Positions 35,403 to 63,378 of a stretch of DNA of 64,000 bases are shown here, piece after piece. Source of the stretch: Rhynchobatus australiae. Lineage: Eukaryota. Position numbers and translations under genes: made by a program. Under the pieces are notes generated by a model. That model did not search any database. It was not told where the DNA came from and was given only the letters and a program-made list of their open reading frames with translations. The stretch is from NCBI GenBank assembly GCA_034780895.1, contig JAUZTB010000001.1:46985925-47049924 (forward strand). The letters are read 5' to 3'. Numbering within the stretch: position 1 is the stretch's first letter; the number at the start of each line of letters is the position of its first letter.

Positions 35403-35526
35403 CTTTAACAATGAGCCTGGCAGATGTTGTGAAGTCTTTAGCAGTGAGTTTAACGTCACCAGCCTCATTTAATTGAACGTCTCTTAGGGTGAAAGTGTGC
35501 CTTCTGCCTTCAGCACGAGTAACAAC
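35403..35526 (-). CDS. ttn: Titin exon, Ig I96 second part
   Basis: 124 nt; VVTRAEGRRHTFTLRDV; 124+143=267. Confidence 0.94.
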
Positions 35527-36596
35527 CTAATCCAAAATAAAAGTTTTAAACTGATAGCAACGTAACAATACAATTACTTACCATGTTAAAAATATCAAAA
35601 ATAACTCAAGGTAAACTCTATTTAACGCATTTCACTCTAAAACAAATTATCTAGTTCAAACTNNNNNNNNNNNNNNNNNNNNNNNNNNNNNNNNNNNNNN
35701 NNNNNNNNNNNNNNNNNNNNNNNNNNNNNNNNNNNNNNNNNNNNNNNNNNNNNNNNNNNNNNTTCTTCCTTTTTCAGATATGGGTTTAAAGGAAACATCT
35801 TTTATAGCTTTCAAAATGTGGGATTTATCAAACAATGCCACTAATAATTTTAACTGCTACAAGATATTAAGAAATTATATTAAATTTCCATACATTTTAT
35901 TTTCTAAATTTCTTAAATATTTGAGCTATCTGTAGTCTTCTGTTTATTACATGCTAATATTTTTCTAGATAACAAATGAATAATTGAAACCTTATTCAGT
36001 TAATTGTAGATTTTTTTTGTCATTCCACTTTACAATCTCAGTTTTTTAGTACTCCAAAATTAATATTTAGTATTCCAAATGATAACAAATGATCTATTGT
36101 TCATAGCAGCCAACCATGCACATGGAACTGAATGTGTTGTTACAAAGTTAGTGCACCATAGTGAAAACCTACTGCCAGTTCAAAATGTAGTATTAATCTT
36201 AATAATACTTTAAATGTTGTTGTTCTAAAGCATCACTAGTATTAAGATTAGGACAAGTAATGATGTCCTTGTCCTAGTGATGTATATATTTAATTTTGTT
36301 TGTTGTCAGACTATTTAAACATTTGCATTTCACTATTTCAGAAATTAATCTCTTGACTATCCTTTATTTTTCCTATGCCACATTAATGACATATTTTATT
36401 GTTTCACTGATAGTCAAATTTCAGATCAGTTCAAATGTAGTTCATTAGGACATGTAAACCTGAGCAGAATTCATAGATTGAACTGCTGTATATTAAATCA
36501 TTTATACAAAAATGGCAAACTAAATTAAGTAAATTTAGGGCATTCAATTTTACAATGATGGGTCTGTTGATGTTTCTGCAAATTATGGATACTTAC

Positions 36597-36650
36597 ATCC
36601 AGATAAACACAAATGGAGTTAAAATCATGATGTAAATTTTTCTTATGCAT
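36597..36650 (-). promoter_or_regulatory. Candidate alternative (Cronos-like) first coding exon
   Basis: ATG-open 18 codons (MHKKNLHHDFNSICVYLD) ending at a GTAAGT donor in phase 0, in frame with exon 35403-35526; position-based inference only. Confidence 0.3.
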
Positions 36651-37064
36651 TGTATAACATATCTCCTTTCATTGTTTTCAGTGAATGTAAAATCATCTTA
36701 AAAAACAAGGGGTAAAATTAAACATTCTATTTTGAAAAGGAGAACTGCAAATTCACTTTAACCCCAGAAAGAAATTGTACATATCTATGTACTGTTTCAA
36801 AGATAAGCATCTATTCTATTTGATGGAAGGACCTTGTTTTACAAAAGAAAGTAATGATTGTTTCTTCTTGAAAAAGTGAAAACATGTTGATGTTAAGAAA
36901 ATACATTTTTGCAAAATTATGTATAAGCTTCGTAATTGATAACAAAAGAGATTAGTACTTTTCATTGAAGTTTTTTGATTATTCCTTTTCACATCAAGCA
37001 ATCTTTAAAAGTATTTTAGAAGACATTGAGGCCTTATGTGCAAGACAAGAATGAGAGAACATTA

Positions 37065-37335
37065 TTGAAACATACAAAATTCTCTTTGGGCTTGACAGGG
37101 TAGATGAAGGATGATGTTTTCCTTGGCTGGGATGTTTGGAAGCACTATTCACAACCTCAAAATAAGATGTCAATCATTCAGGACAAAGATGAGAAGAAAT
37201 CTCTTCACCTGGATGGTAATTAATCTTTGGATTTCTCAAACCAAGAGGGCTGTGGAGGCTTAGTCACTGAGTATATGATATTACTGAACATAGGAAGTCT
37301 GAGGGGATGAATGAACTTCTACTGCTTCCATTTTC
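37065..37335 (+). mobile_element. Degenerate CR1-type LINE 3' end
   Basis: gaaacatacaaaatt...gggcttgacagggtagatg...gatgagaagaaat...agagggctgtggaggct. Confidence 0.65.
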
Positions 37336-37643
37336 TAATTTTTATGTTCTTAGTACATATTTTTACTGATTTTTAATCCAGTAGAACGTCAAAAAGTCAG
37401 CATTATATTTTAAACACATCAGCATTTAAGTGATTAAAAATAGCCACAGAGGAACATGGCTTATTACATTGAACCCCAGTCAATTGTCTGATGTAGAATT
37501 ACCATCCACCACAGCCCCTCAGTTCAGTGGATCTGTGGAGCCAGATCTCTTGAAAATGTAGACAAAATACCTCTCAAATACTGTTAAGATTCCCATGAAT
37601 TATAAGAGAATAAAGTAACAGCACAGAATACATATCAACATAC

Positions 37644-37786
37644 TCTTTCACTGGGCTCAAGTAACTTGTTCTTCAAGAACCATTGGACTTCAATTCCTTC
37701 ATAGGACAGTTCACAATCGAAAGAAGCCGAATGTCCAGCAGTTACTGTCACATCCTTAAGGGGCCGGAGTAAGCTGATCACTCGAG
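37644..37786 (-). CDS. ttn: Titin exon, Ig I96 first part
   Basis: 143 nt; RVISLLRPLKDVTVTAG. Confidence 0.94.
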
Positions 37787-38115
37787 CTTAAGACGAAAAA
37801 GACATTATATATCTTTTAGTTTCAGAAGAACTGTTCCTTTAATTTAAAGTTCTCAGGAGACTGCAACCCTTTAACTCTCTGCACTTAAATTTAAAAACTG
37901 TAATGCACATTCTATTTCTTCAAAAGCAATATGCCCAGCAGTAAATCTGAGACCTTTGGGGCATCATTTTAACTGCTGATCATAGTTATTCTCATCCCTA
38001 CTTGAGGCATTACTGCCTGCTTCTGTCCATCAGCCTTACTGGCATTTTCAAAAATTGCAGGTCTGGTAATATATTTGACATCTATATGCAAATTACTACT
38101 CCCAAGGGTAAAAAT

Positions 38116-38233
38116 AACAAAGCATTGATGAAGGGTCTCGACTCAAAAACTGACTGTCCATTTTCCTCCATAGATGCTGCCTGACCCGCTGAGTTCCTCC
38201 AAGGCCTTGTGTGCTGCTACAAACAAAGCATTG
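38116..38233 (+). mobile_element. Short Penelope-derived insertion with 12-bp target-site duplication
   Basis: aacaaagcattg at 38116-38127 and 38222-38233 flanks atgaagggtctcgac...gatgctgcctgacccgctgagttcctcca. Confidence 0.7.
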
Positions 38234-38398
38234 GTTGGTTTTAGGCGGGAAGCTTACAGCTGTTCAGTAAATTCATGCCGCTTTGGATATTCATTAGTCA
38301 AAGCCAAATAAAATGTTGGGAAATCTTAATGGCTTATCAAGTGCAGTTTTTCTTGACTAGTCACAGTTTTGGTAATGTAACATTAATCACATATCTAC

Positions 38399-38525
38399 CT
38401 TTGACCCTCAAATGAGCATTGGTTTTGGCGTTAGCAGCCTGGAAATCAACTTCACCAGCTTGATCCATTTGCACGTTGTACAATATAAGAAAATGTTTTG
38501 TGCCTTCCTTTTTGATCTCACAGTC
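38399..38525 (-). CDS. ttn: Titin exon, Ig I95 second part
   Basis: 127 nt; DCEIKKEGTKHFLILYNV. Confidence 0.94.
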
Positions 38526-38925: not shown

Positions 38926-39192
38926 CTTCAATGTTTAGTTTGGCTGATGTGTTGTCAGAGCCACAGTCACAAGAATATTGCCCCTGGTCGTTCTTCATAG
39001 CTCGCTTAATGATCAATATTCGCTTCTTCCCATCTGCTTTAATCTGAATATTCTTTGAAAGAATCAGTTCTTTTCCATCCTTAAACCATCTAACTGGAGC
39101 AGCAGATTTACTGACTTCACACTGGAAGACAACTTCATCTTTTTCTACAGCTGTGTAGTCTTGTAGTTTACTGATAAAATATGGTTCACCCT
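38926..39192 (-). CDS. ttn: Titin exon, Ig I94
   Basis: 267 nt; GEPYFISKLQDYTAVEKD. Confidence 0.95.
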
Positions 39193-45530: not shown

Positions 45531-47949
45531 ATATCTGACCTACATACAAATAAAAATATATTAAAAAATACAGAAATCGGCTATCTGGCCCTTTGAGCTA
45601 GCTCTGCCATTTAGTAAGATCATTGCCTAAACTGTACTTTTCTGCCCAATCGTCATAATTCTTAACTTTCCTGTGGACCACGTCAATTGGAAGCAGACAA
45701 TGGTACACCAAGCTATCCAACATACAATTCATGAATATAAAAAAAACATTTACGTTCTGCTCCCTCGGGTGCTGTATTCTAGCTTCAATGTCAGAGTATA
45801 AAATTATAGTTGTTGCTCTTGGCCACATAAGGGCACTATTAGGACAAATGACCAATTATTAGGTCAAAGGTAGTTTAAAGGAGTGTATTAAGGAATAATG
45901 CAAAGTTTTAAGGAAACAATTCCAGAGCTGAAACTAAAAGCAGTTGTAGAATGCAGAGCATAAAGAAGATCAGAATTGCAAAAGCATAGAGATCTCAGAG
46001 AACTAAAGAATGAAGTGGATTATTATAGAGATAAGGAGGGGAATGACCATGGAAGCATTTGAGAGTAAGGATCAAAACAAAGATCTTGCCATTGCAGAAG
46101 TCTGTGCAGGCCTCCGCATAATGTGTGATAATTGAATTGATTTGGTGCAAGTTAGATTAAAAGCAAAATAGTTTAGAAGAGCTCAATTTTAAGAAAGGTG
46201 TAAGAAAGGATATGACCCAGAAGAGTACAGGAATAGTAAAGTCTAAAAGCTTAGACTTAGATTTCAGCAGCATATGGATGAAACAGGGGTAGAACTGGCT
46301 GATGACAAATGACCAATTAGCCAGCTCCACCCCTGTCTCATCCATCTGCTGCTGAATTCCTCATTCATGCTTTTAAACTTTACTATTCCTGTACTATTCA
46401 AGATTAGGAGGAAAATTTGTTAATTCTGTTGATTATTGAGGCACTATCTGGAGAACATAAGTTTAAGAACAAAGGAAAGTACTGAGGTAATTTCATTTCT
46501 GGGGTTGTTAAAAAAGGAATGCTCACCAAAGTGGCAGGTGGAACCATTGTACTTTTGAAACAAAAAGTAGATAAATTTTGAAAAATGTAATTGGTTATGA
46601 AGGAAGGAAAGAAATTGGTCCTAAAAAAAATGGGACTTATGCCTCACCTCCTTATGTAAACTTGTTTAATTCTAAGTGGGAATATATTGAAATATTCTGC
46701 TAAACTTTCCACTTTATGTTGTTAGACAGCACAGAAATTTTTATATTAAATCAGTGACTTGCCTTTGTTGTTGGCCACAAATAATTTGATGAATATACAT
46801 ATTACTTACATATATCTGCATATAAAAATTATATACATAATATTTATATTTTGTAAATAGATAATATAGATCATAGATAATTAGATAGATAATAAATAAT
46901 TAGGTAAAGATTTTTGAATCAAGCCTCAAAAAGCCTCTTGTGGCCTGAGCCTGCGTGTACATTCCTTTAGCCCATATAGTGAAAACGACTTGAACTGCTG
47001 TTAGAATTGATGTAGGCACTAGATTATATTTGGCAAGTTTGCCTCCAACCCTGCTGCCTTTGCATTGCCTTCATCCTGAACGACGGATGGTTCTGAACAT
47101 CTGGTGACTGGCACACAGACCAGTTAAGCAACAGTTCAATCTTGTATTGAGTCTTGCCCCTACTCTTGACTTTAAGTTAGACCTCCCCCTTGCCCCCATT
47201 AACATGCTGGGGCTCACCATTCATCTAAAATGTAACTGTATCAGACACGTAACTACTGTGTCTACAAGAACAATCCAGAAGCAAAACATCCTACAGCTGG
47301 GTATCCTCATTTCCTGACTCCAGACATGAATTAGGAGTGCATTGAAACACACTCCACTTGTCTGGATGAGTTCTAACGACAATTCCAACNNNNNNNNNNN
47401 NNNNNNNNNNNNNNNNNNNNNNNNNNNNNNNNNNNNNNNNNNNNNNNNNNNNNNNNNNNNNNNNNNNNNNNNNNNNNNNNNNNNNNNNNNNNNNNNNNNN
47501 NNNNNNNNNNNNNNNNNNNNNNNNNNNNNNNNNNNNNNNNNNNNNNNNNNNNNNNNNNNNNNNNNNNNNNNNNNNNNNNNNNNNNNNNNNNNNNNNNNNN
47601 NNNNNNNNNNNNNNNNNNNNNNNNNNNNNNNNNNNNNNNNNNNNNNNNNNNNNNNNNNNNNNNNNNNNNNNNNNNNNNNNNNNNNNNNNNNNNNNNNNNN
47701 NNNNNNNNNNNNNNNNNNNNNNNNNNNNNNNNNNNNNNNNNNNNNNNNNNNNNNNNNNNNNNNNNNNNNNNNNNNNNNNNNNNNNNNNNTCTATTAGCAT
47801 CTAGGAAAGAAATGCAATTTACAATGTTGACCAAAAACTACAGCAAAATGAATTAAAATTTGTGAACCTACAATTATTATTAATATAAGCATAACCAGTA
47901 CTGGAAGAACAAGTGAGATACACATTTCTGCAAGTAACAGAAGACTTAC

Positions 47950-61968: not shown

Positions 61969-63378
61969 NNNNNNNNNNNNNNNNNNNNNNNNNNNNNNNN
62001 NNNNNNNNNNNNNNNNNNNNNNNNNNNNNNNNNNNNNNNNNNNNNNNNNNNNNNNNNNNNNNNNNNNNNNNNNNNNNNNNNNNNNNNNNNNNNNNNNNNN
62101 NNNNNNNNNNNNNNNNNNNNNNNNNNNNNNNNNNNNNNNNNNNNNNNNNNNNNNNNNNNNNNNNNNNNNNNNNNNNNNNNNNNNNNNNNNNNNNNNNNNN
62201 NNNNNNNNNNNNNNNNNNNNNNNNNNNNNNNNNNNNNNNNNNNNNNNNNNNNNNNNNNNNNNNNNNNNNNNNNNNNNNNNNNNNNNNNNNNNNNNNNNNN
62301 NNNNNNNNNNNNNNNNNNNNNNNNNNNNNNNNNNNNNNNNNNNNNNNNNNNNNNNNNNNNNNNNNNNNNNNNNNNNNNNNNNNNNNNNNNNNNNNNNNNN
62401 NNNNNNNNNNNNNNNNNNNNNNNNNNCTTTTCAAATGAAAATGCAGCCATTCTGTTTTACAGGACTGTTGCAGGTTCATCTAGTAATTGATGTGCATTTT
62501 TTGCACATAATTTTAATAATGGGAATACTATTAAATAATAGTACATTTATTTATTTCATTTATTTGTTATCAACTTCACATCACAGAAATGGATCACAAC
62601 CAGACATTCTGCACAGTTTTGCAAATTACTTTAGACTCACCACAATGTGATCATTTGATCATTATGACAATTATTATTGTATAAAATCATTTTGTTATGA
62701 AGTGATAAATGTGTGCTTTTGTCTGTTATTATTTCGAGCTTAAATTGATTCATTATATTTTATGAAGGAAGAAAATGTTTTACTGGGCTAAAATAACTTA
62801 CAAAGTTGTGATTGGAGGTCATAATTACTTCTTTTATTAACAAAGTTTGGGTTATTTGTCAAAAACAGTTGTTTAGTGCTCAAAACCTGACATGGTACCT
62901 AAAGTTAAAGTTATTTTTAGAAAAAAATAAGAATAAATGGCCTCTTTCATTTGTTGTAATAAACTTCTCACATATCAGCACTGAACAAGAATCAGCTCCA
63001 GAAACCATCTGGTTGAATTATCAATCCTCAAAATATTACTATTTGTGTTTTATACTGATATTGAATAACATGTCAACTATTGCAAAGAAATTATTGAAGA
63101 CTTGGTTATTGGCAACTAATTCTAAGCAAATTTTATTTGTTCTCCATTGTCAGCAAAACTTATAATTCAACCAACAGAATAATCCAAACATTTATTTCCC
63201 TACGGAATCTCCACCCCATCTAAAGATATGTTAGATCCTCGACTATGCAACTGATTTCACAGCAAAAATAATCCATGAATATATCAAATATAAAAAGGAA
63301 TAGATTAAATTAAACTGTTGCAAGTTAATTATTTCACACAAATATTTCAAGCATTTAAAACTACAAAAAGATACATAC

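Follow-up and report, generated by a model that had tools for sequence, protein, structure and literature searches.

Titin exons and intron identity

The stretch of DNA analyzed here (the window, 64,000 nt, from a genome of 2.23 Gb) carries a titin gene on the minus strand, which extends from PEVK exons across the distal I-band and into the A-band. In tblastn searches with a named bird titin (P0001), Ig exons were collinear from the end of the PEVK region through I97, as expected of the distal I-band of a vertebrate titin. The exon at ~40593 matched the PDB titin domain I27, which we take to be I91; counting on from it identifies 37786-37644 and 35526-35403 as the two halves of I96. These two exons had 77% and 88% identity to Callorhinchus proteins, a level that fits a cartilaginous fish. 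A genome search recovered the exon for the first half of I96 as a single copy, with no second copy found, and a PDB search with the I96 exon returned paralogous Ig domains only. Elsewhere in the window, a single open frame spans two apparent Ig segments with no intron between them (~29000-28580), possibly reflecting intron loss or exon fusion, and degenerate retroelement-like (reverse-transcriptase/LINE-type) intronic fragments, judged by eye from translations, lie at ~44900-44600 and 23230-22730.

In the accessible text of Zou et al. 2015 (PMC4720518), Cronos begins with zebrafish exon 116 or human exon 240, lengthened at its 5′ end without splicing; neither a separate first exon nor a new donor is involved. 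According to the same text, its start site lies 110 nt upstream of e116 in zebrafish and 256 to 257 nt upstream of e240 and e223 in human and mouse, and its initiator Met is in frame, 7 or 12 residues before that exon. Further marks of Cronos are an H3K4me3/DNase peak and a protein of ~2.3 MDa. We compared nine oligonucleotides (guides and primers) from the supplement of that paper (PMC4720518) with the window. The zebrafish e113, e114, e115, and e116 guides had their best window matches at 39161, 38739, 38525, and 37718, in consecutive exons, and the zebrafish e117 and mouse e224 primers had theirs at 35514 and 35505, in the same exon and in the expected order; the zebrafish exon 113 to 117 oligonucleotides matched at 15 to 17 of 20 nt. 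For three of the nine (two e116/e223 primers and the zebrafish Cronos primer), the best window match was not where expected. The order of the matches along the window identifies 38398-37787 as the Cronos intron and places 37643-35527 one intron downstream, at e116-e117 (Table 1). The original prediction had assigned the Cronos site to the downstream intron or else to its neighbor, and it is this second choice that the mapping bears out.

Table 1. Features of the I95-to-I96 region, in window coordinates
Feature	Position	Strand	Description	Basis or remark
Exon, second half of I95	38399..38525	-	127 nt; orthologue of zebrafish e115	Oligonucleotide mapping, exon boundaries
Cronos-orthologous intron	37787..38398	-	612 nt, phase 1; zebrafish e115-e116, human e239-e240	Primer/guide mapping, exon boundaries
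Length difference	38013		46 extra bases in organisms B and C relative to the window; 226 nt upstream of the exon	Contig alignment coordinates
MEF2-consensus match in Cronos intron	37885..37894	-	~100 nt upstream of the exon	No difference listed in B or C
Putative Cronos leader remnant	37787..37808	-	ATA 37808-37806, in-frame ATG 37805-37803, four sense codons, TAA 37790-37788, split codon into the exon	
Exon, first half of Ig I96	37644..37786	-	143 nt; orthologue of zebrafish e116 and human e240, the exon extended by Cronos	
Intron of the original prediction	35527..37643	-	2117 nt including 100 N, phase 0, splits I96; e116-e117 orthologue	Oligonucleotide mapping, exon boundaries
MEF2-consensus motif	37434..37443	+		Chance level
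Old dispersed repeat	37080..37276		~195 nt	74 to 83% identical to other copies (40 scored of 1801 candidates)
GATA motif	36801..36806	+	AGATAA	Chance level
18-codon ORF with donor-like motif	36591..36650	-	ORF 36650-36597, GTAAGT at 36596	Likely chance
ATG plus GTAAGT	35576..35584	-	Strong donor-like 9-mer, candidate Met-only exon; 55 nt from the acceptor	
Exon, second half of I96	35403..35526	-	124 nt; orthologue of zebrafish e117 and mouse e224	

A Cronos-like leader closed by a stop codon

The 3′ end of the upstream intron shares two properties with Cronos: the intron is the orthologous one, and an in-frame ATG (37805) lies within 6 to 12 codons upstream of the exon. It differs in a third, as the frame from this ATG is not open into the exon but is closed by a TAA in the window and in the contigs of two organisms. 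The comparison with zebrafish ttna (ttn.2) Cronos, which starts in the e115-e116 intron (PMC4720518), runs along the same lines. Primer mapping places both in the same intron, and in both an in-frame ATG precedes the I96 exon by a few codons, but here the TAA falls one codon before the exon, and the position at −7, where zebrafish has ATG, reads ATA.

Contigs of four runs were aligned to positions 37420-38100, with X1 representing organism A (the window species), X2 organism B, and X3 and X4 organism C. Since X3, X4, and X5 are one individual, C counts as one sample; B is represented by a single contig, and X1 possibly comes from the sample that was assembled. The five runs behave as DNA contigs. 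X1 showed no differences over its three covered pieces, the leader included, and X2 carried both the TAA and the ATA at 37808-37806 as in the window. Organism C, which is ~96% like the window, differs at both places: at 37790 it has AAA (Lys) where the window has TAA, and at 37806 it has ATG, seven codons before the exon, where the window has ATA. Its leader, read by hand from the aligned contigs, is open over 7 codons. We also considered assembly error as the source of the TAA and rejected it, given that no difference was seen at 37790 in X1 (depth of 4.8) or in X2 (depth of 7.9, ~220 nt from the contig end).

A total of 28 substitutions were listed over 37420-38100, with 8 private to A, 3 private to B, and 17 separating A and B from C. 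This last class, the majority (17/28), indicates that B is the closer relative of A, and the distribution of the stop among A, B, and C, together with the outgroups, places it by parsimony on the stem of A and B. The 46-nt length difference at 38013 is likely a deletion in A that came later than the stop, and it falls within the known range of Cronos start sites (110 to 257 nt upstream of the exon).

The acceptor of the first I96 exon (37789-37787) reads AAG and follows a poor pyrimidine tract, as it does in the teleost-like locus L006. The Lys codon of the Cronos leader overlaps this acceptor and has likely left its mark on it.

A short repeat of very high copy number (depth of >160,000) is present at ~38220-38140 and ~32570-32530. 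The copy in the Cronos intron, ~350 to 430 nt upstream of the exon, appears to be older than the split among A, B, and C. This repeat (~38150-38200) was set aside as a cause of the loss discussed below, as the contigs of organism C also break there and include its flank. A further candidate within the intron, an in-frame ATG followed by a weak phase-1 donor (38276 to 38257; 38276-38252, minus strand) that would splice in frame to 37786, was dropped with a donor score of 2.0.

Conservation of the leader in other vertebrates

Among 234 retrieved proteins, 93 match the pattern with which the I96 exon starts, and 3 of these 93 are spliced to the upstream exon. The other 90 have nonexonic sequence before the exon, with a Met 6 or 7 residues upstream in 84/90, at 12 in three, at 13 in one, and none within 13 in the remaining two; these proteins are ORF calls, in which a start codon is obligatory, and most are unnamed and redundant, which makes them a record of a shared leader and not of its universality. 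Most hits of a search among representative proteins were multi-Ig proteins, and further ORFs with a leader were also recovered. No shark or ray ORF for the I96 exon was apparent among the retrieved proteins, a blank that is uninformative, since the ORF expected of organism C was likewise absent. With blastn, neither intron had a real match in the teleost-like loci L006 and L007 (best E value of 0.12).

A close counterpart in another cartilaginous fish is a Callorhinchus milii model (UniRef100_A0A4W3IPV7; P0015), a database gene model and not a sequenced transcript, whose record name does not call it Cronos. It has an open, Met-led leader of 7 residues that ends in Lys and is spliced on through both I96 exons. 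At the DNA level, the teleost-like locus L006 likewise has an ATG 7 codons upstream and a Lys codon before the junction. The leader of organism C has the same length as these two and is identical to both at positions 1, 3, 6, and 7. Considering that it is as long as the leaders of the Callorhinchus model and of teleosts, the 7-codon leader is likely ancestral and was likely broken in the lineage of A and B, which would amount to a natural loss of the Cronos protein.

In human and mouse, Cronos (TTN intron 239) extends the orthologous exon, starting ~256 nt before exon 240 with its Met 12 residues upstream in the accessible text of the two reports (PMC4720518, PMC7478974). The mammalian leader thus has 12 residues, compared with 7 codons in the fishes examined, closed in the window species; the three retrieved proteins with a Met at 12 carry a leader of mammalian length on this same exon.

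The changes in the leader may also be read as slow decay. Cronos would then never have been functional in this group of cartilaginous fish, or would long have been silent, with the leaders of C and Callorhinchus eroding gradually and the stop arising by neutral drift. The last 30 nt of the Cronos intron differ between A and C by four substitutions and one insertion, which does not look like tight constraint. However, C, Callorhinchus, and teleosts, whose divergence from one another is very long, all have an open frame of equal length, and we regard this reading as unlikely.

The candidate first exon in the I96 intron

The original prediction had proposed a separate first exon, spliced by a new donor, in the downstream intron. 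Its description of that intron as 2.1 kb long, in phase 0, and located within I96 was accurate, and the motifs that it listed (ORF, donors, GATA, and MEF2) are all present where it had located them. Its description of the intron as mostly unique holds with qualifications, as it contains 100 Ns (35762-35663) and the dispersed repeat listed in Table 1. The gap is probably too long, since organism C crosses 35659-35797 with ~26 bases.

MEF2 and the other motifs were scored by their consensus definitions, with chance levels taken from 2000 dinucleotide shuffles of this intron. GATA motifs (4 observed versus 2.65 expected; P = 0.28) and MEF2 consensus matches (1 versus 1.05; P = 0.66) were present at counts expected by chance, and GTAAGT was borderline (2 versus 0.50; P = 0.08). 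Neither B nor C differs from the window at the MEF2 motif (37434-37443), but at 2 to 4% divergence this carries no information. GTAAGT with an in-frame upstream ATG was found twice versus 0.11 expected (P = 0.0055 for at least two and 0.11 for at least one), an excess that is real at face value for a pattern that was picked post hoc, after looking. Comparable combinations of ATG and GTAAGT occur at 62801, 46809, and 7188, all intronic by eye, and ATGGTAAGT occurs twice in the window versus 0.69 expected, a count reached by 14 of 100 shuffles. The donor at 35581 scored 11.0, among the best values (training sites, 1.5 to 11.9) in a crude and partly circular matrix built on 28 hand-placed sites, several of them mislocated and many picked for reading GTAAGT. 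A text search of Zou et al. 2015 (PMC4720518) gave 0 mentions of MEF2 and GATA4 in the portion of the paper covered.

The architecture of the candidate also departs from that of Cronos. The intron is the orthologue of e116-e117 and closes with an in-frame TAG before 35526, and the proposed exon needs a new donor, while published Cronos, in the accessible part of its description, is an unspliced extension (PMC4720518), and zebrafish Cronos has no counterpart of a spliced first exon. A start in this intron would supply the second half of I96 only, beginning in mid-domain. The candidate first exon is likely not a real feature but chance sequence in an ordinary intron.

The same motifs would take on another meaning if the start had moved. 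With the ancestral start dead, a new promoter in the I96 intron could drive a first exon (Met-only, 35584-35582, or the 18-codon ORF) spliced onto 35526, giving a Cronos-like protein that begins halfway through I96. The broken ancestral start supplies a motive for such a move, and both ATGs are in frame. The ATG with GTAAGT repeats the sequence of the real donor at 47949 letter for letter, with the A at −3 and G at +4 of the Kozak rule; the intron also has a TATA-like site (35806) along with GATA sites (35830 and 35652). The strong score of the 35581 donor and the presence of two ATG-plus-donor motifs in one intron point the same way. However, none of the 10 distal I-band introns measured is as short as the proposed 55 nt (range, 89 to 2117 nt), the protein would have half an Ig domain at its N-terminus, and the GATA and MEF2 counts are those of chance. 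In addition, a search with the 35526 exon returned 2 proteins among 60 candidates, both from Callorhinchus and without a Met leader (73 to 2000 amino acids searched, a weak test), and there is no GTRAG near the acceptor in the teleost-like locus L007. We therefore consider such a move highly improbable; if true, it would represent turnover of an internal promoter in a living group of cartilaginous fish, with a short titin that starts with half an Ig domain.

Around the 18-codon ORF, a pseudo-exon-like unit is apparent at 36720-36591 (minus strand), with a pyrimidine tract and AG ending at 36697, a body of 100 nt, and the donor at 36596. Its inclusion would shift the frame and add a stop, the shape of a poison exon, but its origin is probably chance.

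Proposed loss of the ancestral start

From the sequence comparisons, we think it probable that the 2.1-kb intron is ordinary, that the start homologous to Cronos sits at the 3′ end of the upstream intron, where a TAA has broken it, and that this lineage likely cannot make Cronos protein from the ancestral start. Such a loss presupposes that Cronos once had a function. In ancestral jawed vertebrates, a transcript would have begun in this intron, and its 7-codon leader would have been read into an intact I96. The stop would then have arisen on the stem of A and B, when the Lys codon underwent a single A-to-T change. Any surviving transcript is predicted to encode an upstream peptide of 5 residues. 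In an ATG scan of this hypothetical transcript, the ATGs beyond that peptide and through I97 number 10, all of them out of frame, and little or no Cronos protein would be expected. As the acceptor keeps its final AAG, full-length titin would be spliced as before.

Some Cronos protein might nevertheless be made if the ancestral promoter still fires, by readthrough of the TAA, by a near-cognate start (GTG at 37781), or by reinitiation. Such expression would be in keeping with the in-frame ATG at 37805, which is kept and has an A at −3, with in-frame GTG, ATC, and CTG codons within the first 30 codons of the exon, and with the MEF2-like site of the intron, unchanged in B and C. However, UAA is the least leaky of the stop codons, the ATG at 37805 and three out-of-frame ATGs in the exon would capture scanning ribosomes, and organism A is without 46 nt in the presumed start region. 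On balance, continued production of Cronos protein by these routes appears distinctly unlikely, and we return to loss of the ancestral start as the preferred reading.

The interest of a natural knockout lies in the unsettled normal role of Cronos. In the accessible text of the reports, Cronos is offered as the reason that titin truncations toward the C-terminus do more harm than those toward the N-terminus (PMC4720518, PMC5068190), and truncations distal to Cronos had greater severity both in human cohorts (PMC5068190) and in the skeletal muscle of zebrafish (PMC12854356). Adult mouse sarcomeres, by a partly accessible account, are not maintained by Cronos on its own (PMC7478974), and a 2026 review, in the part available, leaves the role of Cronos as suggested (PMC13031707). 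If the loss is real, a lineage with a fixed nonsense codon and a relative ~96% alike with an intact leader would form a natural knockout and control pair and would show that Cronos can be dispensable.

The intact leaders support an origin of Cronos before the split between bony and cartilaginous fishes. An early origin had also been put forward in the original prediction; it stands at the sequence level, through the Callorhinchus model and organism C, and not by way of the motifs on which it had been based. The word Cronos has 0 occurrences in the accessible text of the elephant shark connectin paper (PMC12241362) and of a paper on connectin evolution (PMC12198301), and a literature search, with most subscription journals outside its range, found nothing on Cronos and titin in sharks or other elasmobranchs or on the evolution of Cronos in vertebrates.

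A second teleost-like class of the first I96 exon, also with short, Ser-rich Met leaders, was observed in the teleost-like locus L007 (~95-117) and in nine of the retrieved proteins (P0031 to P0036, P0046, P0048, and P0049). This class is perhaps the other titin copy (ttn.1/ttnb), a guessed assignment, and its leaders suggest that both teleost titins may have Cronos-like starts.
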